Below, piece by piece: positions 2,467 through 29,703 of a stretch of DNA of 35,328 nucleotides. Under the pieces are notes generated by a model, which searched no databases, was not told the DNA's origin, and was given only the letters and a program-made list of their open reading frames with translations. The position numbers and the translations under genes were made by a program. Positions within the stretch are counted from its first letter, which is position 1. Each line of letters begins with the position of its first letter. Source of the DNA: a virus. The stretch covers positions 1 to 35,328 of IMG/VR virus record IMGVR_UViG_2802429215_000001; one strand, written 5' to 3'.

Positions 2467-5400
2467 TGAGTGTTGCTGAAATTCGACGTGAAACGTTTTA
2501 TAAGCTAACGAATAGCGCAGACGTGCCAGAAGTTCCGAGTGGAAATAGGAACTTATACGCAATTTCAAAAAATAGCGGAACATACACTAGTGGTGTTAGC
2601 GAATTTGTTCAAAATATTGAAACAGGCGAAATAAGCTGGAAAACAGCGAGTGTAAGCGATTCGCAATTTGGTGGGTTTACAGCAACAATTGGAACGACCT
2701 ACAGAAACGTTTATGGTATCAAAATTCCAGTCGTGCAAGGCAAAGACATACTGGTTAGCCTGACAGATGACCGCTTGATTAAAAACTATGTCATGTTTTG
2801 GGGTGAAGATAACACTCTCGTTAAAAAAACAATAAAATATACGACTAACCATTTTAAAGTTCAAGCTAACCAGCTCGAAAATGTAAGCTACTTGACGTTT
2901 AGGATTGGCGTCAAAGAAAACACGCAAGAAATTGGTACTTTGATTAAGACCAAAATTAAAGTTGAATATGGCAATGTGTACACCGACTGGACGCCAGCGC
3001 CTGAAGACTTCTGGTCAACAACCGCGCTCGTACCAACGCAGGAAGAACCTTACTTGTGGAAATTTGAATATATATACTATTCAGACGGCAGTGTTGAAGT
3101 TACACAGCCAGTCAATTTAACAAAACAGAATGCTCAAAGAACATCTCGAGACACAATTCATAATGTACGCATTGCGGTTCGTGATTCGACTGACAGTCAT
3201 AATGTAGCTTTCTTTGATAATATTTCTGGCATTCGTTACCAAAGTGCTAATTTACAGCGATTCTTGGCTGGCTCGGCTAGCATTTTGACGATTGAGTACA
3301 ATTCGAAAGACATTGACACGATTAGAACTGGCTGTAAGCTTGCTTTTATCTACAAGCAGCGCGCTTACTGGTTGAATATCATGGGCTTGAACAAGAAAGG
3401 CTACAAGGTTGAAATCACAGCTTACTCGCTCGGTCTAGAGCTTAACCAAGAGGAGCGAGGCGCACACAAGCCAGCTAATGCAATGAGTTTTGCTGAATAT
3501 TTGGCTTATTACGACCCAGAGCATGCTTTGGAAATAGGCGTTAACGAAGTGGCAGACAAACGTATCAAATTGGAGTGGACGGGCACAGACACGATTCTGG
3601 CGCGTCTTTTTTCAATTGCAAACAGCTTTGATGCCGAACTTGAATTTACTGTCGAGCTAAATCAAGATTATTCGTTAAAACGTCAAGTTTTAAATATCTA
3701 CAAGAAAGGCAATCTTGGTTCTAATCGCGTAGCTAGTCCAATTCGTGTTGGACGTGGCTTGAAAGTTATCAATTACAGCGACAACTTGAAAGAATTGCGC
3801 ACTGCAGTACGTGCTACTGGTAAGGACGGATTGACCATCGACGGACTGAACAAGAAAGTCTACGATGATGACGGCAATCTGCTTTACTATTCAAATGGCA
3901 TGACTGTATATGCGCCTCAGAGCCGTGATAAATATCCGTCAGTCGGCAAGAAGTCGAACGATAACTGGATTATTAAAGAACTCGGAGAGACCGAATACAG
4001 CACTAAAGAAGCACTTTGGGGCTACATGCTCGGAGAACTCAAAAAGATTTGTGTTCCAGAAATTACATACGACATCGAAGGTGCTGTCGATGGCGATGTT
4101 GGAGACACACGTACATTAATCGATGACGTGCATTACGACCCGCCTCTGTATGTTCAAGGGCGCATTTCAGAGCTGACAGAGGATTTAATCACTGGCAAAG
4201 TTACGAAGTCAACGCTTACGAATTTTGAACGTAAGTACTCGCAAGTCGCTAGCGAATTACTAAAACAAGTTGAACAGCTAGCAAATGACGCAGCACCTTA
4301 CATTGTTCGCTTATCAACTGATAATGGCTACAATTTTAAAAACGGGAAAGGCACGAGCACAATCACAGCTAAACTTGAGAAGTATGGCAAAATTGTAAAC
4401 GCAAATTGGAAGTGGCTAATTAATAACAACATCGTTAGCGATAATAACAGCGTCACAATCAACGCTAGTCAAGTTATTGGCACACTAAACGTCGTAGCTA
4501 TTGCAACCGTTGACGGTAACGAGTTAGCTCGTGAATACATCACTTTTACCAATTCTGACGATGGTGTTGGCATTAAATCAATCAAACGTTATTACACGAC
4601 TAACGACCAAGCAGAGGGTGTCACGGCAGGCGGTCAAAACTGGTCTACTAAACCAACGACTGTAACAGCAGACAAAAACTATATGTGGTCGTATGACGTC
4701 ATCACGTACACGAATGACACAAGTTTAGTTACTGAACCAGCTGTCATTGGAGCTAGAGGAAATGACGGTTTAGACGCAGACACGACAGGTGTCACAGAAG
4801 CACTTGACAAAGCTAAGCAAGAGTTGACTGCTTTATCAGCGAATATCGAAAAAGTGCGAGATGATTCGCTTGCAGCAGTCGAAGAAGCCAAACAGCAACT
4901 CACTACTGTAGCTAATGACTTGGGCACCGCTAAGCAAGATTTGCAAACGCAAGCTAGCCAACTAAAAGTACAAGCTAGCGCACAGTCAGAATTGACTAAA
5001 CGTGTAAGTAGCGTTGAAGAAACTGCTAATGGCACGAAGACGACTGTTAGCGAATTAAGTAAGACAGTAGAACAAAACAGCAAAGACATTACAAGTGTTA
5101 CTGCACGAACTAAGACAGTTGAAGATGACCTGACAAGCACTAAAACGACTTTGTTACAAGTGCAGACGACAGCTAACAGCGCAAGTCAAAAAGCGGCAAC
5201 ACTTGAAACTGGTTTGGACGGTGTCAAGGCTGATTTAGCTGCAACTACAGCAACTGCCGACACGACTAAAACAAATCTCGCTAACTACCAAGCGTCAATT
5301 GACCAAGCAGTGGCTAGTCTGCAAAGCAGTTTACAAACTACAGACGGCAATGTAAGCAGTCTACAAACGCAAATCAATGCAGTACCTGGACAAATCACTA

Positions 5401-7202
5401 GCGCAGTTAGTGCGGTCGAAGGCAAGATTCCGACGGAAATTGGCGGACGAAATTTATACGCATTATCACGAAATGCAAGTGTATATACACGATATATCAC
5501 CGAATTTGTCCAAAATGTTGAAACTGGTGAAATTAGTTTCAAAGTTGCTGGAACTGACCCGTTCTTTGGAATACATACTTACGCAGGAAATGCTTACGAC
5601 GTTAGTCGAGGAGTTAAAATTCCTGTCAAGGTCGGTCAAGACATAGCTGTTAAATTAACCAACGAATTGTTTGCCAAAAACTTCGTAAGCTATTTTGGCG
5701 CAGACGATAAAGCTGTTAAAGGCTTTAAAAATTATAAGACGAACAAGTTCGTAATTCCAGCTGACGACCTTGAAGGTGTTTCATATGTAACTTTCCGTTT
5801 TGGAATCAACGAGGGAACGCAGGAAATTGGCAGCGTACACTCAACAAAAGTTAAAGTTGAATATGGCAATGTGTACACCGACTGGTCACCAGCACCCGAA
5901 GACACAGCAAGCCAAATTAGCTCGCTATCTAGTCGAATTCAGCAGACTGCTGACGGCATGACGTTGTTGGCGACTAAAACAGAGTTGAATAGTGCTAAAA
6001 CCGACTTGCAAGCTGGCATTTCGACAGCGACAAGCAAAGCTGATAACGCACAAAGCACTGCTAACAGCAACGCGCAAACAATCAGCACACACACGACTCA
6101 AATCAGTGCATTGAATACAGGCCTGCAAGCCAAGGTTTCGCAATCTGATTTTGATTCGCTAAGTGGTGACGTTGATGATTTATCAAGTGAGCTTACTCAA
6201 ACAGCAAGTTCAATCACTGCGAGCGTGTCAAGTGTAGAGACCAAAGCAGATAATGCACAAACGACTGCAAACAGCGCCGTCTCAAAAGCTAACGCGGCAC
6301 AAACAGCAGTCAATACGCTAGACAGCGAAGTCGTCAAATCAGCAAGCTTGAATCTTGATAACAACGGCTTTGTGACAAAAGTAGGCAAAACCATCGACGG
6401 CAATAAATTTGCAACAATGATTGCTCAGAACGCTAACAACGTCAAAATCATCGCTGATGAAATGCAGGTGACAGCTGACATGATTGTTGATGGCGCAGTC
6501 ACAGCTAACAAGCTAAACGTAAACAATTTGTCTGCCGTCAATTCAAACCTTGGTAAAATCGAAGGCGGTTCGCTCTTACTCCAAGAAAACAAGACTGCGA
6601 GCAGCTCAGTTGACAACTGGGGCACGTTCAACCGTCCAGCGCATAAGCAAGGCCTATATATGGACAATCATGGATTAGCTTCATCTGGCGCGATTCAGCG
6701 AAAAAACGGCAGCGAAACAACGCCAACGGATATGCCCTTGGCAGTTCTACAATCTGGTGAACTACGTTTCCTAGTCGTTGATTACAACGATAATCTCGAG
6801 AACGTCCTACACTATGGTCTGTCTGACCCAGACTACGGCGCAATCCGTTTTGAGATTGACAGCGAGTTAAAACGTCGTTTGACCATGACGTCATCAGGCT
6901 ATCTAAACTTCCAAGCGACTAACTACACGAACTGGCAATCAACAGGTGTCAGTGGATGTGAGTATATGATTCAAGGGCGTTTGGTACTGGTTAACTACGA
7001 CGTGACATTTAGTAGCGCTGGAACGCATACGATTGGAAGTGTGCCGCAAGAATTTGTGAGAAAATCACTCATGCTTACCGCCAAAGGCTGGAGCGTTATA
7101 CCTCGAGACAAGAACGCGCAGCTTAATCCAGACGGTAGCTTGCATATTCTGGACGCAGAAGCTAACGTCAACTACCGTGGCACATTAGTATTTAGTTATT
7201 AA
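2463..7202 (+). CDS. Tail-associated (Tal-type minor structural) protein fused to a fibre/receptor-binding region; two CBM-like modules and two coiled-coil tracts
   Basis: 1579-aa ORF directly after Dit. A central region resembles the phage minor structural protein N-terminal (Tal) domain. There are long Ala/Thr/Gln/Ser heptad-like tracts. An alternative ATG start lies at 2466. GGAGG at 2451-2455. Confidence 0.8.
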   Translation: MMSVAEIRRETFYKLTNSADVPEVPSGNRNLYAISKNSGTYTSGVSEFVQNIETGEISWKTASVSDSQFGGFTATIGTTYRNVYGIKIPVVQGKDILVSLTDDRLIKNYVMFWGEDNTLVKKTIKYTTNHFKVQANQLENVSYLTFRIGVKENTQEIGTLIKTKIKVEYGNVYTDWTPAPEDFWSTTALVPTQEEPYLWKFEYIYYSDGSVEVTQPVNLTKQNAQRTSRDTIHNVRIAVRDSTDSHNVAFFDNISGIRYQSANLQRFLAGSASILTIEYNSKDIDTIRTGCKLAFIYKQRAYWLNIMGLNKKGYKVEITAYSLGLELNQEERGAHKPANAMSFAEYLAYYDPEHALEIGVNEVADKRIKLEWTGTDTILARLFSIANSFDAELEFTVELNQDYSLKRQVLNIYKKGNLGSNRVASPIRVGRGLKVINYSDNLKELRTAVRATGKDGLTIDGLNKKVYDDDGNLLYYSNGMTVYAPQSRDKYPSVGKKSNDNWIIKELGETEYSTKEALWGYMLGELKKICVPEITYDIEGAVDGDVGDTRTLIDDVHYDPPLYVQGRISELTEDLITGKVTKSTLTNFERKYSQVASELLKQVEQLANDAAPYIVRLSTDNGYNFKNGKGTSTITAKLEKYGKIVNANWKWLINNNIVSDNNSVTINASQVIGTLNVVAIATVDGNELAREYITFTNSDDGVGIKSIKRYYTTNDQAEGVTAGGQNWSTKPTTVTADKNYMWSYDVITYTNDTSLVTEPAVIGARGNDGLDADTTGVTEALDKAKQELTALSANIEKVRDDSLAAVEEAKQQLTTVANDLGTAKQDLQTQASQLKVQASAQSELTKRVSSVEETANGTKTTVSELSKTVEQNSKDITSVTARTKTVEDDLTSTKTTLLQVQTTANSASQKAATLETGLDGVKADLAATTATADTTKTNLANYQASIDQAVASLQSSLQTTDGNVSSLQTQINAVPGQITSAVSAVEGKIPTEIGGRNLYALSRNASVYTRYITEFVQNVETGEISFKVAGTDPFFGIHTYAGNAYDVSRGVKIPVKVGQDIAVKLTNELFAKNFVSYFGADDKAVKGFKNYKTNKFVIPADDLEGVSYVTFRFGINEGTQEIGSVHSTKVKVEYGNVYTDWSPAPEDTASQISSLSSRIQQTADGMTLLATKTELNSAKTDLQAGISTATSKADNAQSTANSNAQTISTHTTQISALNTGLQAKVSQSDFDSLSGDVDDLSSELTQTASSITASVSSVETKADNAQTTANSAVSKANAAQTAVNTLDSEVVKSASLNLDNNGFVTKVGKTIDGNKFATMIAQNANNVKIIADEMQVTADMIVDGAVTANKLNVNNLSAVNSNLGKIEGGSLLLQENKTASSSVDNWGTFNRPAHKQGLYMDNHGLASSGAIQRKNGSETTPTDMPLAVLQSGELRFLVVDYNDNLENVLHYGLSDPDYGAIRFEIDSELKRRLTMTSSGYLNFQATNYTNWQSTGVSGCEYMIQGRLVLVNYDVTFSSAGTHTIGSVPQEFVRKSLMLTAKGWSVIPRDKNAQLNPDGSLHILDAEANVNYRGTLVFSY
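2541..3008 (+). repeat. CBM-like module A inside the Tal gene (paralogous to 5445..5903)
   Basis: Protein-level duplication: NRNLYAISKN...VEYGNVYTDWTPAPED versus GRNLYALSRN...VEYGNVYTDWSPAPED. Contains a 35-nt block (2956-2990) identical to 5851-5885. Confidence 0.8.
5445..5903 (+). repeat. CBM-like module B inside the Tal gene (paralogous to 2541..3008)
   Basis: Same as module A. The identical 35-nt block is ttaaagttgaatatggcaatgtgtacaccgactgg at 5851-5885. Confidence 0.8.
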
Positions 7203-11370: not shown

Positions 11371-12531
11371 TCACTTAATTGCTCGCAAGAATGAATCGGT
11401 AACTTCGCTTGCTACCTCGTCTTTGATATGCGTATACTTTTGGGTCATGTATGCTGTTGAATGTCCTAAAGCTGCAGCCATATGTTCAACTGGCACACCA
11501 GCGATTTGACCTTGCGTAGCGAAGAAGTGCCTCATCATGTGAGGCGTTATGTGCATGTCGCAAGCTTCGTTTACTTTTCTAAAAACCGCATAAATTCGTG
11601 AGCAAGCAACTGGCTGTCCTAATGTTTTTTTGGTTTTTTCTCCAGCATCTAAAAAAAGAAAATCATTCTTGTTTAGAATACGCCCAGACTCTTTTGCTAA
11701 TTTGCGAGAGACTTTGGTTGCGTATTGTAATAACTTGGTCGTTTCTTCGTCGACAACAATATAGCGTTCAGAGCTTTTAGTTTTCATACCTTTTCCGTTC
11801 GGACGGTAAAAAGTTCGACTCTCATCTAAAAGTATTTTAAAACGTGACCCAATTAATTGTAACGAGCCTAATTTAACCCCAAAAACTTCGCTTTTCCGGA
11901 GTCCAAAATAAGTAAGTCTAACCATTGCATATTCGTATTTTGTCAATAGTTTTCTAGCGCAAGCGTCCCATTCGCGAAACTCTTCTAAAGAAATTCTTTT
12001 GTTTTTTGGCGGGTTTTTGCTTTCGCCGATATAGATTTTAAAAACCGGATTTTTGTCTAAATAGCCATTTACTACAGCGTCATTGAGCATCGCTTCAAAA
12101 ACGGAATTTATCTGTCTTACAGATGAGCGGGTCAATCTCTTCAGCAATCCAGTCATATATTTCTCGTATTCAAGACGTTCAATATCTTTCAATCGCATAT
12201 TTCCGTATTTTTTAGCAAAGTGTCTGTTGTATACATTCCTTTTGTCGACTATCGTATCTGGTGCCCATCGGCCCGTTTTAATACGGTTCTCGCTGTATAT
12301 TTCCCAATAATCGTTGACCGTCATGTTTTTCTTCGGGTCATACTCATTGTTTGCGATTTTATTTTCAATTTCAGCAAGCGCGTGTCTAGCTTCAGCAAGT
12401 GTTTTTAATCCGCTAGCGCTTATTTCTTTTTTCTTGCCGTTTAATTTAAAGTTTCGGCGAACGTAGTAGCGTTTGCCTTTCTTAGTTTCATATGTATAGA
12501 TATTTGGATATTTTGTTTTATTGTATTTCAT
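11371..12531 (-). CDS. int: Tyrosine integrase with an N-terminal arm-type DNA-binding domain
   Basis: Catalytic motifs GLRKSE, HMMRHFFAT and LGHSTAYMTQKYTH. The N-terminus KYPNIYTYETKKGKRYYVR is typical of the AP2-like arm-binding domain. AAAGGAG RBS. Confidence 0.9.
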   Translation of the reverse strand: MKYNKTKYPNIYTYETKKGKRYYVRRNFKLNGKKKEISASGLKTLAEARHALAEIENKIANNEYDPKKNMTVNDYWEIYSENRIKTGRWAPDTIVDKRNVYNRHFAKKYGNMRLKDIERLEYEKYMTGLLKRLTRSSVRQINSVFEAMLNDAVVNGYLDKNPVFKIYIGESKNPPKNKRISLEEFREWDACARKLLTKYEYAMVRLTYFGLRKSEVFGVKLGSLQLIGSRFKILLDESRTFYRPNGKGMKTKSSERYIVVDEETTKLLQYATKVSRKLAKESGRILNKNDFLFLDAGEKTKKTLGQPVACSRIYAVFRKVNEACDMHITPHMMRHFFATQGQIAGVPVEHMAAALGHSTAYMTQKYTHIKDEVASEVTDSFLRAIK

Positions 12532-12764: not shown

Positions 12765-13328
12765 TTATTTATCTAAATTATCAATGGCATATTGCGCTTC
12801 TGATTCCGTAAATTTTTCACCAGATTCAGAAATTAGCTGATCATAGATAGCGTCTGGAGACATTGCCATGCTTTCTTGGTAAGTTTTTGCTTGTTTCAAA
12901 GCGGCTTTGTTGTAATCAAAGTTAGAGTTGTCAATAGCATATTGAGCTTCTTCAGGAGTGAACTTTTCGCCCATTTCAGAAGAAAGTTGATCATAAATAC
13001 CTTGTTTTGACATATGCATATTTTTGTAATAGCTTTTTGCTTGTTTCAAGGCAGCTTTCTTGTAATTAGCTTTCAAGTGGTCAACAGCATATTGAGCGTC
13101 TTCTTCTGAATATTGGTCATAATCAGAAGTCAATTGGTCAAAGATACCTTGCTTAGACATGTGCATGTTCTTGTAGTAGCTTTTTGCTTGTCGTAATGCC
13201 GTTTTTTGAGTAGTAGTAGCAGCATAAACAACAGTCGGTTCGTTAACCGCAGGGACGTTAACGACATCAAGCATTGCTGCACCAAGAATAGCAGTAGCAC
13301 CGAGCATAAAGACAGTTTTCTTCTTCAT
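12765..13328 (-). CDS. ltp: Ltp-family superinfection-exclusion-like protein: three tandem Ltp repeats, signal peptide without a lipobox cysteine
   Basis: Three repeats of AL(K/R)QAK(S/T)Y...M.MS..GI(Y/F)DQL......(F/Y)..E(E/S)AQYA(I/V)D match the host cell surface-exposed lipoprotein (Ltp) repeat. Located between int and the repressor. The N-terminus is MKKKTVFMLGATAILGAAML and no Cys is present anywhere in the signal region. Confidence 0.8.
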   Translation of the reverse strand: MKKKTVFMLGATAILGAAMLDVVNVPAVNEPTVVYAATTTQKTALRQAKSYYKNMHMSKQGIFDQLTSDYDQYSEEDAQYAVDHLKANYKKAALKQAKSYYKNMHMSKQGIYDQLSSEMGEKFTPEEAQYAIDNSNFDYNKAALKQAKTYQESMAMSPDAIYDQLISESGEKFTESEAQYAIDNLDK

Positions 13329-23602: not shown

Positions 23603-23779
23603 ATGTCTTTTATGGAAGATCATCCAGAATGGTATGGAACCTACAGTGATTACCATCCGGAAATTGCAAGACAGAAAACAATGCAAGATCTTGAAGAAGA
23701 GATTGAGCAATTAAGAACAGAGGTAGGCACATTGAAAAGATGCCTCGGTGAACTAAAACGCACTGTGTCTGGTTGGTAA
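23603..23779 (+). CDS. 58-aa hypothetical coiled-coil protein (not in the ORF track)
   Basis: AGGAGG RBS, ATG at 23603, stop at 23777-23779. Confidence 0.55.
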   Translation: MSFMEDHPEWYGTYSDYHPEIARQKTMQDLEEEIEQLRTEVGTLKRCLGELKRTVSGW

Positions 23780-23796
23780 TTAGGAGGAATATTAAT

Positions 23797-24015
23797 ATGG
23801 AAGACTATAAAGTAAGATTTATTAAAGAATACAAAGAACTAAAAGAACGTGCTGATAAACTATGTCGTATGCTTGATAGATGGTTAAATAATGATTTAGA
23901 CTTTGTACCATCTTGCTCATTTGAATTGCTTGAAAGTCAGTATCATGTGATGAAAGCATATCTTAGCATTCTGGAACAACGTGCTGAAATTGAAAATATC
24001 GATTTAGAAGCATAG
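23797..24015 (+). CDS. Hypothetical 72-aa helical protein
   Basis: ATG at 23797 after TAGGAGG. Confidence 0.6.
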   Translation: MEDYKVRFIKEYKELKERADKLCRMLDRWLNNDLDFVPSCSFELLESQYHVMKAYLSILEQRAEIENIDLEA

Positions 24016-24392: not shown

Positions 24393-24818
24393 GTGAGCAG
24401 AGCTAAGACTATTTTGAAAGATTTAAGGAATTTAGATTTATATATTCAAAGCTTGATTAGAAGGCGAGATAGGCTTAACGCTTCACTGCTTTCAAGCCCT
24501 CGATGGTCTGCTGATAAAGTCAAAGGTGGATTAAACAGGAAACAAGATGATGTATATGCTGAATTGCTTGATTCAATTGATGAGATTGATAATAAGACGG
24601 TTGAAGCTATTCAAAAGCGCAGAGAACTGCAAGATATGATTGACAATCTAGAAGATACTGCAAGCAGAACTATTTTAAGTCTCGTATATATTGATAAGAT
24701 GTCGATGTATGAAGTGATGGATGAAATGGGAATCAGCGAGCGAACTTATTTCAGATTAAAAAAAGCAGCACAAAAGGACCTTGAAAGTGCTGACATAAGC
24801 AGTCATATCAAGGCATAA
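24393..24818 (+). CDS. Putative late transcriptional activator (C-terminal sigma-70 region-4-like HTH; ArpU/DUF1492-like); a small terminase role is not excluded
   Basis: GTG start after GGGAGGAAAG. The C-terminal MSMYEVMDEMGISERTYFRLKKAAQKDL resembles a sigma region 4 HTH. The gene lies just upstream of the packaging genes. Confidence 0.5.
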   Translation: MSRAKTILKDLRNLDLYIQSLIRRRDRLNASLLSSPRWSADKVKGGLNRKQDDVYAELLDSIDEIDNKTVEAIQKRRELQDMIDNLEDTASRTILSLVYIDKMSMYEVMDEMGISERTYFRLKKAAQKDLESADISSHIKA

Positions 24819-25399: not shown

Positions 25400-26662
25400 T
25401 TGAGTTTAAAAGGAATGAATTACTTAAAGCGCAAGCTTTCAACGGTACGTCCAAGGGTTAAAATGCGGTATAGACAGTACGCTATGAAGCATTATGACCC
25501 ACCAGTCGGATTAGCTATCCCACATCAAATTATAAGCAAGTATCAAGCGGTTTTAGGTTGGTCAGCAAAGGGCGTTGATAGCTTAGCGGACAGACTAGTT
25601 TTCCGAGAATTCGCTAACGATGATTATAATGTTAATGCTATTTTCGCTCAAAATAACCCTGATATCTTTTTTGATAATGCAGTTTTGTCTGCCTTAATTG
25701 GCTCATGCTGTTTTGTTTACCTCTCGAAAGACGAGGATGAGCGAGTTCGTCTGCAGGTCATCGAAGCAAGCAATGCAACGGGTGTTATTGATCCAATCAC
25801 AGGCCTTTTAACTGAAGGTTACGCTGTTTTACAACGTGATGATAACGATAACCCGATTTTAGAAGCGTATTTCACCGACGAAGAAACTTGGTTTTATCCA
25901 AAAGATGAAACGCCTTTTAGAGTTTCTAACCCTACAGGAGTGCCTTTGCTTGTTCCTGTTATTCATCGCCCAGATGCCGTCAGACCATTCGGACGCAGTC
26001 GAATTACTCGCTCTGGTATGTATTATCAAAGATACGCAAAAAGAACACTTGAGCGAGCTGATGTTACTGCCGAATTCTATTCTTATCCTCAAAAATACAT
26101 TTTAGGTATGGACCCAGATGCGGAAGCAATGGACACTTGGAAAGCTACAGTATCATCATTGTTGCGAATTGATAAAGATGACGATGGTGACCACCCAGTC
26201 GTTGGACAATTTACAACTGCGAGCATGTCGCCGTTTATTGAACAGTTGCGAATGGCTGCATCTGGTTTTGCTGGTGAAACGGGTTTGACCTTAGATGACC
26301 TTGGTTTTGTTTTAGACAATCCATCAAGTGTTGAGGCAATTAAAGCTAGCCATGAGAATTTACGTGTGGCAGGCCGCAAAGCTCAACGCTCGCTTGGAAG
26401 TGGATTGTTAAACGTTGCTTATGTCGCTATTTGTTTGCAAGATGAATTTCAGTATTTGCGTAGTCAATTCGTGAATACGTCTGTCAAGTGGGAACCGCTG
26501 TTTGAAGCCGACGCAAGCACATTAACACTGATTGGAGATGGTGCTATCAAGCTTAATCAAGCCATTCCTGGTTTTGTAGACGGAGAAACAATTCGAGATT
26601 TGACTGGTGTTAAAGGTTCGGGCAATGTTGCTCCAGTAGTAGAGGAAAATAACGATGAATGA
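25400..26662 (+). CDS. Portal protein (SPP1 gp6-like)
   Basis: TTG start 5 nt after AAAGGAG. The motif LGWSAKGVDSLADRLVFREF and the 420-aa size fit a portal. It is followed by a MuF-like gene. Confidence 0.75.
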   Translation: MSLKGMNYLKRKLSTVRPRVKMRYRQYAMKHYDPPVGLAIPHQIISKYQAVLGWSAKGVDSLADRLVFREFANDDYNVNAIFAQNNPDIFFDNAVLSALIGSCCFVYLSKDEDERVRLQVIEASNATGVIDPITGLLTEGYAVLQRDDNDNPILEAYFTDEETWFYPKDETPFRVSNPTGVPLLVPVIHRPDAVRPFGRSRITRSGMYYQRYAKRTLERADVTAEFYSYPQKYILGMDPDAEAMDTWKATVSSLLRIDKDDDGDHPVVGQFTTASMSPFIEQLRMAASGFAGETGLTLDDLGFVLDNPSSVEAIKASHENLRVAGRKAQRSLGSGLLNVAYVAICLQDEFQYLRSQFVNTSVKWEPLFEADASTLTLIGDGAIKLNQAIPGFVDGETIRDLTGVKGSGNVAPVVEENNDE

Positions 26663-27869
26663 TGATGTATTACCAGCACTTCTAGAAGAGGTTCAAGACA
26701 ATTTTGGACAGGAATTTGGTAAGAGCGAGGTTGTTGTCAAAGCTTTAAAAACTCTCGAAGCTAAAAAAGCAACATATGCAAATGCAAATGATTTTGCCAT
26801 CGAAGTCGGAGAGATACTCTCTAAAGCTCTCACAACGTCTGTAACGGCAGATAAATTGCCAGACGGTAAAATGTATTATAATATCGCAAAACGTTTGCTA
26901 GAACCAGTTTTACAGCAAAATCATGAGCTTGTAGCGGATTATTCAAGTAAGGTTCAAACCATTTTGAATGAAAAAGCAAAAATAAGTCTTGCTGCGCAGC
27001 CTGTTGAATTAAATCAAGATAGGATTAATGGCTTTATCGAGCGGTTTTCAAAAGAAGACAAGTTCGATGATGTTAAATGGCTTTTAGGTGACCCAATCGT
27101 CAATTTCACGCAAAGTATTGTTGATGACAGCATTAAGAAAAATGCTGAATTTCACGCAAAAGCTGGCCTGCAACCTAAAATCGTTAGAAAAACAGCTGGT
27201 CGTTGCTGCAAATGGTGCCAAAGTTTGGCCGGAAGTTACAATTATCCAGACGTTCCTAAAGACGTTTACAGACGTCACCAAAATTGCCGATGCACTGTTG
27301 ATTACAAGCCAGGTGACGGGAAAAAGAAGAACATTTGGTCTAAAAAGGTAACTGCAGACAGTAAAAATAAGCGCGAACAACGACGTCAAATGAATATTGA
27401 TATTCGTGACAACAACAGAAAAAGTGATAGGATTGAATATCTAGAATTTGCTAAAAAACTTGATTCTAAATTCGTGCCTGTTTCGCTAGCTAAATTTCAG
27501 GAATTGAAGTATAATGACGTTGAAAGATACAAGGAGCTGAAAGACCGTGTCGTTTGGAGTGAAGCTAAATTTCCAAGTGAAAAATCTTTTAACGGGCATT
27601 TTGAAAAGCATGCTAAAGAATTTATTCAAAATCTTACTAAGGAAGATTATCAAAAAGCAGCTGCAAGTTTGTTGTCACAACCAATTGCTGAAGATGTTAT
27701 AGGTTATGAAACCGATAAAGGTCGCAGAGTAAGATATGACAAGAAGAATAACATCATGGCTATTGGCAATCGTACTACTAGCGGTAAAATCAGAATTAAT
27801 ACGATGTTGAGACCGGAGAAAGGAGAAGAATATTACTATGAAAACTACGACAGAGATCATAATGGTTGA
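26655..27869 (+). CDS. MuF/SPP1 gp7-like head morphogenesis protein with a C-terminal toxin-like (putative RNase) extension
   Basis: The MuF signature is RKTAGRCCKWCQSLAG...RRHQNCRCTVDY. The C-terminal ~100 aa carry GHFEKHAKEF...GRRVRYDKKNNIMAIGN...GKIRINTMLRPEKGEEYYY. Confidence 0.75.
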   Translation: MNDDVLPALLEEVQDNFGQEFGKSEVVVKALKTLEAKKATYANANDFAIEVGEILSKALTTSVTADKLPDGKMYYNIAKRLLEPVLQQNHELVADYSSKVQTILNEKAKISLAAQPVELNQDRINGFIERFSKEDKFDDVKWLLGDPIVNFTQSIVDDSIKKNAEFHAKAGLQPKIVRKTAGRCCKWCQSLAGSYNYPDVPKDVYRRHQNCRCTVDYKPGDGKKKNIWSKKVTADSKNKREQRRQMNIDIRDNNRKSDRIEYLEFAKKLDSKFVPVSLAKFQELKYNDVERYKELKDRVVWSEAKFPSEKSFNGHFEKHAKEFIQNLTKEDYQKAAASLLSQPIAEDVIGYETDKGRRVRYDKKNNIMAIGNRTTSGKIRINTMLRPEKGEEYYYENYDRDHNG

Positions 27870-28038
27870 TGGAGAAGAATGTATCCATTGTCCAGTCTGT
27901 GGTCGGATAGTTCAATTGTTCGACGTATGTGAATGCAATTGGGAAAACACTGGTGAAACAAATATTGATGGTGGTCCCAATAAAATGACGTTGTCAGAAG
28001 CAAAAGAAGCTTATGCTAAAGGTTTAGAAATTTACTAA
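27838..28038 (+). CDS. CPCC-type cysteine-rich zinc-ribbon protein (candidate immunity partner)
   Basis: CIHCPVCG...DVCECNWENTGE...DGGPNKMTLSEAKEAY matches my recollection of the Cys_rich_CPCC family. It overlaps the MuF gene by 32 nt. Confidence 0.6.
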   Translation: MKTTTEIIMVDGEECIHCPVCGRIVQLFDVCECNWENTGETNIDGGPNKMTLSEAKEAYAKGLEIY

Positions 28039-28076
28039 GCACACTAACAAGTAAATAGGTTAGGGTGCTTTTTTTA
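28038..28076 (+). terminator. Rho-independent terminator inside the packaging/head module
   Basis: 11-bp stem AGCACACTAAC/GTTAGGGTGCT with one mismatch, followed by a T7 run. Confidence 0.65.
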
Positions 28077-28097: not shown

Positions 28098-28238
28098 ATG
28101 ATTAATACACTTTGGAACTTTTCGGAATTCTTGGCTAGTGCCACAATGGCGGGAATGATGCTTTTTATTTTCGTTGTATTCACTATCGGGATAATAAACG
28201 CGATTAATCAAGAATTTAAAAAAATGTTTAAAGATTAA
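28098..28238 (+). CDS. 46-aa membrane peptide (not in the ORF track)
   Basis: TAGGAG RBS. Translation: MINTLWNFSEFLASATMAGMMLFIFVVFTIGIINAINQEFKKMFKD. Confidence 0.45.
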   Translation: MINTLWNFSEFLASATMAGMMLFIFVVFTIGIINAINQEFKKMFKD

Positions 28239-28290
28239 TACCTCCCAGCGACAGGGTTATCATGCAATTACATGATTGAAAGGAAAAGTT

Positions 28291-29703
28291 ATGGCTGAGA
28301 AAAAGAAAAAACTTGGCAATCAAAATCCTACTCAATCGGTAATTCTTCCATTTGACAAATCTTTATCTGATGAAGCTATCGAGATATACGAGAGAACGGG
28401 TTTAAAAAGTTATCCATGGCAGCAAAATCTTCTAAGAAGCGTAATGGCCATTGAAGAAGATGGGCTTTGGACACACCAAAAGTTTGGCTATTCTATCCCT
28501 CGTCGTAACGGTAAGACAGAAATTATTTATATGCTTGAACTGTGGGGCCTATACCATGGGCTTAACATCTTGCACACAGCGCACCGAATCAGCACATCAC
28601 ACTCATCTTTTGAGAAAGTCAAACGCTACCTGGAGAAAATGGGGCTTGAGGACGGAAAAGATTTCAATTCTATTCGTGCCAAAGGCCAAGAGCGTATTGA
28701 ACTTTATGAAACAGGTGGGGTTGTGCAGTACCGCACCAGAACGTCCAACGGTGGACTTGGTGAAGGTTTTGATTTATTGGTTATTGACGAAGCGCAAGAA
28801 TATACCACAGAACAAGAGTCTGCTTTAAAATATACCGTGACAGATAGCGATAATCCGATGACAATCATGTGTGGTACACCACCAACACCAGTTTCAAGTG
28901 GTACAGTATTTACAAAATATCGCGAGACTTGTCTCTTTGGCCGTGGTAAGTATTCTGGATGGGCTGAATGGTCCGTTCCTGAAGAAAAAGAAATTGATGA
29001 CGTTGATGCTTGGTACAATTCAAACCCGTCAATGGGATTTCATTTGAACGAGCGTAAAATTGAAGCTGAGCTTGGTGAAGATAAACTTGACCACAATGTT
29101 CAACGTCTTGGTTATTGGCCAACCTACAACCAAAAATCAGCTATTTCTGAAACTGAATGGAATGCTTTAAAAATTGAAGATTTACCACAATTTCAAGGTC
29201 AGTTATTCGTCGGCATCAAGTATGGGCAAGACGGTACGAATGTCGCTCTTAGTGTTGCAGTTCGTACAAAAGATAAACGTGTCTTCGTCGAAACGGTAGA
29301 TTGTCAATCTGTCAGAAACGGCAATCAATGGATTATCAACTTTTTAAAACAAGCAGATATTGCACAAATTGTAATTGATGGTGCTAGCGGTCAAAAGATT
29401 TTGAATGATGAATTGAAAGACTTCCACATCAAAAACACGATTTTGCCAACAGTAAAAGAAATCATTGTTGCAAATTCAATGTGGGAACAAGCTATTTATC
29501 AACAAACTCTTTGCCATGCTGGTCAACCATCACTTACTAAAGTCGCAACCAACTGTGATAAGCGTAACATTGGTTCAAACGGCGGCTTTGGGTACCGTTC
29601 GCACTTTGATGATATGGATATTAGTCTTATGGACAGTGCTTTGCTGGCACATTGGGCTTGCGCAACAACCAAACCCAAGAAAAAGCAAAAAGTTAGCTAT
29701 TAA
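28291..29703 (+). CDS. terL: Terminase large subunit
   Basis: ATG at 28291 after GAAAGGAAAAG. Walker A-like PRRNGKTE and Walker B-like LLVIDEAQE. The C-terminal half is nuclease-like. Confidence 0.85.
   Translation: MAEKKKKLGNQNPTQSVILPFDKSLSDEAIEIYERTGLKSYPWQQNLLRSVMAIEEDGLWTHQKFGYSIPRRNGKTEIIYMLELWGLYHGLNILHTAHRISTSHSSFEKVKRYLEKMGLEDGKDFNSIRAKGQERIELYETGGVVQYRTRTSNGGLGEGFDLLVIDEAQEYTTEQESALKYTVTDSDNPMTIMCGTPPTPVSSGTVFTKYRETCLFGRGKYSGWAEWSVPEEKEIDDVDAWYNSNPSMGFHLNERKIEAELGEDKLDHNVQRLGYWPTYNQKSAISETEWNALKIEDLPQFQGQLFVGIKYGQDGTNVALSVAVRTKDKRVFVETVDCQSVRNGNQWIINFLKQADIAQIVIDGASGQKILNDELKDFHIKNTILPTVKEIIVANSMWEQAIYQQTLCHAGQPSLTKVATNCDKRNIGSNGGFGYRSHFDDMDISLMDSALLAHWACATTKPKKKQKVSY

Follow-up and report, generated by a model that had tools for sequence, protein, structure and literature searches.

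Fusions of a MuF-type phage head protein with a toxin are an established class. According to Jamet et al. 2017 (PMC5576092), toxins of the MuF type occur in temperate phages only, and the MuF3 group of head domains was seeded on gp35 of the Streptococcus mitis phage SM1. In the same work the muf gene of SM1 and its downstream open reading frame (ORF) were aligned with mafB (WP_003711327.1) and mafI (WP_002235294.1) of Neisseria meningitidis NM3001 (Additional file 5), and for other MafB toxins the role of MafI proteins in immunity has been validated by experiment (PMC4287609). Among MuF toxins, Apk2 is the only one for which an experimental characterisation was found in the literature (PMC12226406), and MuF proteins are thought to lie inside the head at 2-3 copies, where they bind DNA (PMC12226406). 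Moreover, a complex of a homologous toxin with a CPCC immunity protein has been in the PDB since 2023. Here we describe a gene pair of this kind in a stretch of viral DNA of 35,328 nucleotides (IMG/VR record IMGVR_UViG_2802429215_000001, positions 1 to 35,328; hereafter the window), in which a 404-aa MuF-type head protein is followed by an overlapping gene for a 66-aa cysteine-rich protein. A preliminary description, made from the sequence alone, had regarded the pair as a MuF-toxin fusion with a novel immunity partner. We consider it highly probable that the pair is an SM1 gp35/gp36-type MuF polymorphic toxin and CPCC immunity module of a temperate Streptococcus siphophage, so that the identification is correct; it is not new, since the SM1 pair was already pointed out in 2017.

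Toxin domain and predicted immunity gene

The features of the pair are as follows.

26655..27869, plus strand: MuF-type minor head protein gene, 404 aa (ORF; stop codon 27867-27869)
26655..27404, plus strand: MuF3-type head-morphogenesis domain, residues 1-250, with the CCKWC...HQNCRC cysteine motif
27390..27530, plus strand: conserved linker or 'pre-toxin', residues 246-292, MNIDIRDNNRK...KFQELKYNDVERY
27546..27869, plus strand: C-terminal toxin domain, residues 298-404 plus stop, about 107 aa, predicted BECR/RelE-like fold
27564..27599, plus strand: near-invariant AKFPSEKSFNGH motif, 5' edge of the variable cassette (alignment of Firmicute homologues)
27597-27599, 27609-27611 and 27801-27803, plus strand: candidate catalytic residues H315, H319 and T383, respectively
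27600..27960, plus strand: diverged toxin/immunity cassette, comprising the toxin core and the first ~40 CPCC codons (zinc-ribbon half)
27838..28038, plus strand: gene for the 66-aa Cys_rich_CPCC zinc-ribbon protein, overlapping the MuF gene by 32 nt
28037..28076, plus strand: intrinsic-terminator-like hairpin with T-run (hairpin 28037-28070, T-run 28069-28075), starting within the CPCC stop codon

The coordinates and sequences of both ORFs are as first described: the 404-aa protein contains CCKWC...HQNCRC, NGHFEKHAKEF, GRRVRYDKKNNIMAIGN and GKIRINTMLRPEKGEEYYY, and the 66-aa protein contains CIHCPVCG...CECNWE...GGPN. When the toxin domain was compared with the PDB sequences, a single chain was matched, 8EY4_A, the C-terminal domain of a PT-VENN (CdiA) protein, with an E-value of 8.4e-4 in a single-sequence phmmer search and of 4.1e-5 with a profile built from Firmicute homologues only. 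Profiles that contain the close CdiA/CdiI relatives of 8EY4 give very strong E-values against the PDB, and the Proteobacteria-free profiles were relied on instead. The AlphaFold2 model of the domain, built on an alignment of 69 sequences, has a pLDDT of 94.6 and consists of two helices, a four-stranded beta-meander and a helix (DSSP: H12-25, H32-44, E51-55, E60-65, E70-76, E82-88, H94-105). Its top match in Foldseek is again 8EY4_A (E 6.5e-6, TM 0.66/0.79, rmsd 2.5 A over 87 columns), and ranks 2-11 include HigB, BrnT, RelE and CdiA-CT Kp342 (E 0.02-0.15, TM 0.3-0.6). [quoted passage not shown]

In the same alignment every member has F323, Y361, T383, P387 and Y393, and H315, H319, Y332 and N366 are conserved in at least 90% of them; all nine are present in the window protein. 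The pattern H..KH..EF / Y-D..N...T...P...Y, which had been noticed in the single sequence, is therefore a true signature of the family. One of the conserved histidines is missing in some homologues, for example in P0008, which has P in place of H315. Two N-terminal histidines combined with a serine or threonine on the last strand are the pattern of Ntox35 and of some BECR clades (Zhang et al. 2012, PMC3482391); membership of Ntox35 was considered for this similarity and dropped, as a Pfam match is absent. Judging from fold and residue pattern, the toxin is, very likely, a small domain of RNase type that needs no metal. Searches of the full protein and of its C-terminal 154 aa against Pfam and NCBIfam returned no toxin family, only weak DUF7874, VG15 and chance matches, and weak DUF7874 matches occur in 8 of the 69 family members (best 1e-4).

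The family is large, with 4601 cluster representatives at E <= 1e-3 and 2559 at E <= 1e-10, and in nearly all listed matches the domain stands at the C-terminus, behind RHS, filamentous haemagglutinin, PT-VENN (CdiA), PT-HINT, MafB, Pyocin_S or TcdB/SpvB parts. This position behind toxin-delivery N-termini shows that it is a genuine polymorphic-toxin C-terminal domain, and the proposed fusion of MuF with a polymorphic-type toxin is borne out by the presence of the same domain at the C-terminus of CdiA, MafB, Pyocin_S and RHS proteins. A few members, among them P0245 (1530 aa), P0247 and P0248, have 3-5 tandem toxin-domain matches and not one C-terminal copy; the only Pfam match of P0245 is a weak one to TnpV. 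For annotation it is of value that the domain has no Pfam model despite more than 4,600 cluster representatives, and that its partner is still listed in Pfam and NCBI as of unknown function.

The 66-aa protein was expected to match Cys_rich_CPCC, and it does so marginally (PF14206, 24.6 bits against a gathering cut-off of 24.5), while all 10 aligned CPCC homologues match this model (best 2e-20) and the window protein itself matches phrog_6332 at 5e-29. The predicted zinc ligands C18, C21, C31 and C33 are invariant among the aligned homologues. Both immunity chains, 8EY4_I and 8EY3_A, belong to Cys_rich_CPCC; a single-sequence search relates them to the 66-aa ORF at E 0.04, and 8EY3 and 8EY4_I are matched at 1.5e-4 by a CPCC profile of Firmicute and Neisseria sequences only, without Proteobacteria. 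Since both the toxin chain and the immunity chain match, 8EY4 is homologous to the window pair on both sides. The CPCC gene is preceded by AAGGAG at 27820-27825, 12 nt upstream of its ATG at 27838. An alternative in-frame ATG at 27862, which equals the start annotated in SM1 and pSY22, would reduce the overlap with the MuF gene to 8 nt, and an overlap of 32-35 nt recurs in Javan221, Ligilactobacillus ruminis and Neisseria lactamica. Clusters of such proteins cross genera: one at >=90% identity spans Ligilactobacillus, Lactobacillus iners, Facklamia and Streptococcus.

Among 17 phage records that contain the toxin domain, 15 are from Streptococcus phages, and CPCC follows the toxin directly in all 15; the remaining two are the Faecalibacterium phage FP_Brigit, listed twice. 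A CPCC ORF also follows the toxin in 12/12 species-representative genomes, and the two adjoin each other in the cdiA locus of Enterobacter roggenkampii, in a mafB class 3 locus of Neisseria lactamica and in a pyocin-S locus of Pectobacterium. In about 81 further phage records with a MuF3 N-terminus and another C-terminus, no CPCC was found. The pairing of toxin and CPCC is thus obligatory across delivery systems. Together with the homology to the immunity chain of 8EY4, this adjacency agrees with the view that the downstream gene is the immunity partner, and sequence comparison makes it almost certain that the toxin's cognate immunity gene is the overlapping CPCC gene. The word novel has to be withdrawn, as a CPCC immunity chain is already present in 8EY3/8EY4 and the SM1 muf gene and its neighbour were aligned with mafB-mafI in 2017.

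FP_Brigit (MG711465.1 / NC_047909.1, 24934-25242, phrog_15528) has a distant toxin copy with 32% identity, which is fused to the C-terminus of a portal protein of ~790 aa and not to MuF; tblastn detected no CPCC in this phage. In the pyocin-S locus of Pectobacterium brasiliense (L011, 2982-3406) a DUF4926 gene comes after the CPCC gene.

Head domain, exchanged cassette and gene context

Residues 1-250 of the MuF protein match phrog_2494 'minor head protein' at 3e-174 and are 62% identical to residues 1-250 of SM1 gp35, the seed of MuF3, and the head domain of the window belongs to the MuF3 group of Jamet et al. 2017. The preliminary description had called it a normal SPP1 gp7/MuF domain. This holds at the level of the superfamily on literature evidence, as membership would follow from synteny and from the published comparison of hidden Markov models (PMC5576092), but it is overstated otherwise: the protein does not match Pfam Phage_Mu_F (PF04233) at E <= 1, the only Pfam match of the N-terminal 250 aa is VG15 below threshold (20.8 bits, cut-off 26), and in an hhalign comparison of SPP1 gp7 with a shallow MuF3 alignment nothing beyond the NCRC motif could be aligned, at a non-significant probability of 0.9%. 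Neither a search of the PDB sequences with the MuF N-terminus nor PADLOC found anything. As in other MuF polymorphic toxins, the N-terminal MuF-superfamily domain is encoded straight after the portal gene, and a small ORF (<150 aa) lies directly downstream, in a temperate phage.

The neighbouring features are as follows.

11374-12531, minus strand: integrase, lysogeny marker in the window
12768-13328, minus strand: Ltp-type surface lipoprotein with three Lipoprotein_Ltp repeats, superinfection-exclusion type, lysogeny module
25400..26662, plus strand: portal gene, 420 aa (ORF; counterparts annotated as portal in pSY22, Javan221 and SM1)
28276..29703, plus strand: large terminase (TerL), 475 aa (from the annotations of pSY22, Javan221 and SM1; scaffold and major capsid downstream)

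The window comes from a temperate Streptococcus siphophage or prophage, of the bovis/equinus group; the nearest records to the window are the phages pSY22, Javan221 and Javan263, and the temperate context is given by the integrase and the Ltp lipoprotein. Its late region runs in the order DUF1492 late-region protein, HNH, portal, MuF, CPCC, a 46-aa hydrophobic ORF, TerL, scaffold (DUF4355) and capsid. The portal ORF is directly upstream of the MuF gene and overlaps it by 8 nt; the portal protein found no match in Pfam, while the scaffold and the capsid have Pfam matches. The DUF1492 protein (24393-24818, 141 aa) has a C-terminal segment resembling a helix-turn-helix and is encoded just 5' of HNH and portal, and a small crAss001_48-related protein is encoded at 23773-24015 (plus strand), upstream of the packaging region. 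The 46-aa ORF (28098-28238), which is strongly hydrophobic, has a good AGGAG ribosome-binding site and no family match, follows the terminator-like hairpin and precedes the large terminase gene, a place at which SM1 has a DUF6275 gene (gp37).

The junction between head domain and toxin can be placed from the homologues P0023-P0025, which agree with the window protein in the linker (...KFQELKYNDVERY) but carry Ntox50 (PF15542) behind it; this indicates a polymorphic junction at residue ~292. The stand-alone orphan ORFs in L. ruminis begin at a Met equivalent to the start of the linker. Further downstream, A304, P307, E309, K310 and S311 do not vary among the Firmicute homologues, and the AKFPSEKSFNGH motif that contains the conserved stretch is a possible recombination anchor. 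Divergence from pSY22 and Javan221 starts right after AKFPSEKSFNGH and stops in the middle of CPCC, before the invariant half GETNIDGGPNKMTL.EAKEAYAKG: in 60-nt bins the identity falls to 53-73% in 27600-27960, while the flanks (24.2-30.6 kb) are ~80-100% identical, mostly >=90%. As the divergence is confined to the toxin core and the zinc-ribbon half of CPCC, both were replaced together as a cassette, as would be expected if toxin and immunity specificity co-evolve, which points to the zinc-ribbon half of CPCC as the part that may carry the specificity. The natural cassette variants in the near-identical pSY22 and Javan221 would make this phage convenient for testing specificity.

The pair had also been described as closed by a strong terminator at 28038-28076, which would set portal-MuF-CPCC apart as a transcription unit. 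A hairpin with a T-run is indeed there, and the stretch around it is 96-100% identical in pSY22 and Javan221, but the hairpin is of moderate quality, with a folding energy of -11.6 kcal/mol and a z-score of -1.9 (7 of 200 shuffles were equally good), and an intrinsic terminator of moderate strength is plausible. A consensus terminator scan did not list it, probably since its 10-nt loop exceeds the 8-nt limit of the scan. Inside the toxin gene, ~50 nt before the CPCC start, there is a sigma-70-like site (TTGGCA-16-TAAAAT, 10/12, at 27763-27790), and the EJ-1 record annotates a promoter at the equivalent place (L026, 1726-1755). An internal CPCC promoter is nevertheless unsupported: the site is absent in SM1, pSY22 and Javan221, and promoter-like sites are no commoner than in shuffled sequences.

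CPCC genes also occur apart from the toxin. Six streptococcal satellite prophages have two CPCC matches each and zero toxin matches, and in the three satellites examined (Javan218, Javan339 and Javan344) the two are different alleles.

Javan218 (L002), 4501-4701 and 5406-5627: satellite CPCC genes, one copy unannotated
Javan339 (L012), 1-360 and 401-610: satellite CPCC genes
Javan344 (L013), 882-1325 and 1357-1566: satellite CPCC genes

The first copy of both Javan339 and Javan344 continues into a C-terminal extension of ~60 aa, which might be related to DUF4926. These two S. mitis/oralis satellites also have a 71-aa ORF next to the CPCC genes (L013, 1597-1812; L012, 641-856), which belongs to no Pfam family and is 31% identical (pairwise E 1e-7) to an ORF that follows an Ntox50 MuF C-terminus in L. 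ruminis (L005, 2355-2555); it is a putative second immunity type. In Javan218 the counterpart of the DUF1492 gene (L002, 4785-5210) lies between the two CPCC genes. The L. ruminis ORF is part of a prophage remnant next to galK/galT (L005, 1975-5001; also L004 and L006), which holds an array of stand-alone 'MuF linker + toxin' ORFs: an Ntox50, a truncated Ntox50 and a 154-aa homologue of window residues 251-404, with a small ORF after each toxin ORF and a truncated TerL N-terminus at the end. It looks like an array of orphan toxin/immunity cassettes as in CDI (contact-dependent growth inhibition), Rhs and Maf loci, here of MuF type. Because the cassette is swapped between ~96%-identical phages, the satellites hold CPCC alleles and L. 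ruminis holds orphan cassettes, we put forward, tentatively and as a possibility that is rather doubtful at present, that the module is one allele of an active immunity-specificity arms race which reaches beyond whole phages. The satellites may stockpile immunity against a MuF toxin delivered in helper-built capsids. If helper capsids do deliver the MuF toxin with satellite DNA, this would be genetic evidence for its injection and action in recipients, and the satellite CPCC genes would add a new layer to satellite-helper biology.

Proposed action and rival explanations

For the gp35/gp36-type toxin and immunity module we propose the following course of action. The MuF3 domain, by analogy with its family, would take part in head morphogenesis in association with the portal and would bring the protein, in a few copies, into the capsid. 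The linker (residues ~246-292) would join it to the ~107-aa BECR/RelE-like toxin domain, in which the helix histidines H315 and H319 and T383 of the last strand would most likely catalyse metal-independent cleavage of RNA. CPCC would be translated from the same late transcript via the overlapping frame, probably by translational coupling, and, as in 8EY4, it would bind the toxin directly, 1:1, and so neutralise it. The toxin core and the immunity zinc ribbon would be exchanged as a cassette between otherwise near-identical phages, which would give rise to specificity variants, and newly infected cells may be the target of the toxin, be it in competition against non-lysogens or in host takeover. 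An assignment of activity would be the first for a nuclease-type MuF toxin and for a family of over 4,600 representatives.

Several points weigh against this explanation. The structural similarity to HigB, BrnT and RelE is weak, and none of the 69 family members is matched by the PBECR or Ntox models of Pfam at E <= 0.1. The literature searches, which covered 8EY4, Cys_rich_CPCC, CdiA-CT with CPCC and the CdiA of O32:H37, found nothing, that is, neither a published activity of a member of the toxin family nor a paper on 8EY4; since they gave no biochemical data, the RNase activity is proposed from the fold and the residue pattern. The packaging of the full-length protein in the virion is likewise assumed from knowledge of the family. 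On the side of the partner, the window CPCC has a CxC (C31-E-C33) where most homologues have CxxC, and a Foldseek search with its model (pLDDT 85.9, zinc-free, small and with little secondary structure) gave no match with E < 1 and did not list 8EY3, a miss regarded as uninformative for so small and zinc-dependent a protein. In addition, CPCC is part of the late operon, and a conserved promoter inside it could not be found; the model of immunity in lysogens is weakened for this phage for that reason, and an expression of immunity in lysogens, which the competition model needs, is unsupported.

The preliminary description had compared the C-terminus with RNase A-like toxins (CdiA-CT Ykris, MafB2-CT) and with PBECR nucleases, and a nuclease of either kind with a previously unrecognised class of immunity protein would be an alternative. 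The combination of two histidines and a threonine does resemble RNase A-type catalysis, a MafB2-CT with RNase A fold exists (PMC9970974), and the databases (Pfam, NCBI) call the small protein 'CPCC family cysteine-rich protein', with no immunity annotation. However, the helix-helix-beta4-helix topology finds RelE, HigB, BrnT and BECR CDI toxins in Foldseek and no protein of RNase A fold in the top 50, and neither single-sequence nor profile searches of the PDB match an RNase A-like toxin, 8EY4_A being the only match, so that RNase A-like toxins were rejected. Membership of the PBECR families of Pfam fails on the same 0/69 matches given above, and a CPCC partner is not unrecognised, as it is present in 8EY3/8EY4 and was implicitly reported as MafI/gp36 in 2017. 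We judge this alternative very unlikely. Still less can be said for a reading of the extension as a non-toxic structural appendage, or one that binds DNA or RNA, with CPCC as an unrelated zinc-ribbon regulator or assembly factor. The loss of a conserved histidine in homologues such as P0008 and the lack of enzymatic data for the family in the literature searches would fit it, but thousands of proteins with N-termini of the classical toxin-delivery kind end in this domain, the title of the PDB entry for the homologous pair speaks of a toxin-immunity complex, and a structural role leaves the strict adjacency of toxin and CPCC across four delivery systems unexplained; we hold it to be most improbable.

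A further explanation accepts the nuclease and differs in its purpose. The packaged enzyme could be an effector of benefit to the phage, which is ejected with the DNA and, in the logic of 'polyvalent proteins', shuts down or remodels host RNA or counters defence; CPCC would protect the producing cell only, during late gene expression, and the protein would not be a toxin of competition between bacteria. Toxin and CPCC belong to the late head operon, their frames overlap and no conserved promoter of their own was found, which fits lytic co-expression better than immunity of a lysogen, and the head-internal, DNA-bound state supposed for MuF proteins (PMC12226406) is also consistent with it. Against this, the same toxin-CPCC pair occurs in genuine systems of bacterial competition (CdiA, MafB, pyocin S and Rhs), the cassette swaps in near-identical phages and the toxin-less CPCC copies of satellites look like arms races over immunity specificity, and the restriction of MuF toxins to temperate phages (Jamet et al., PMC5576092) points in the same direction. 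Such an effector role, including a protection confined to the producing cell, is possible and we regard it as somewhat unlikely.

Relation to known systems

The BECR RNases (RelE, HigB, BrnT, CdiA-CT Kp342 and colicin D/E5) share with the window toxin the N-terminal helical segment and the four-stranded meander, and Ntox35 of Zhang et al. (PMC3482391) shows the same logic of residues, with His on the helix and Thr on the last strand. The main difference is that the structural similarity is low (E 0.02-0.15, TM 0.3-0.6) and there is no match to Ntox or PBECR in Pfam. Apk2, from a prophage of Streptococcus pneumoniae, is likewise a MuF toxin of a temperate streptococcal phage with its immunity genes directly downstream; however, it is a (p)ppApp synthetase with IapK/Aph1 immunity, and both its chemistry and its immunity proteins are unrelated to the window pair.

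Closer is 8EY4, a CDI toxin-immunity complex from Escherichia coli O32:H37, for which 8EY3 represents CdiI alone. The toxin is homologous in sequence and fold, the immunity chain is Cys_rich_CPCC, and the gene adjacency is the same (as seen in the Enterobacter cdi locus). Its toxin is ~28-32% identical to that of the window and is delivered not by a phage head protein but by CdiA, a type V filament that has a PT-VENN pre-toxin; compared with the window CPCC, the proteobacterial CdiI has insertions both within the zinc ribbon and ahead of the GG.N motif. The CDI target of CASP14 (BWH57), which was also considered, is of a different family. In case of the MafB class 3/MafI pairs of Neisseria, the toxin is ~45-46% identical; CPCC reaches 62% and hardly differs in its C-terminal half, and the two genes overlap by 35 nt, while a DUF1020/MafB secretion domain takes the place of MuF at the N-terminus.

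The closest system is that of phage SM1, which has the same gene order, namely HNH, portal, MuF-toxin, overlapping small ORF, small ORF, TerL, scaffold and capsid, and whose full-length MuF protein gp35 and small protein gp36 are 57% and 67% identical to those of the window, respectively. The differences are that the toxin core is only ~45% identical, that the window CPCC has a one-residue deletion relative to gp36, which results in CxC instead of CxxC, and that the relatives of the window's host are of the S. equinus/infantarius type.

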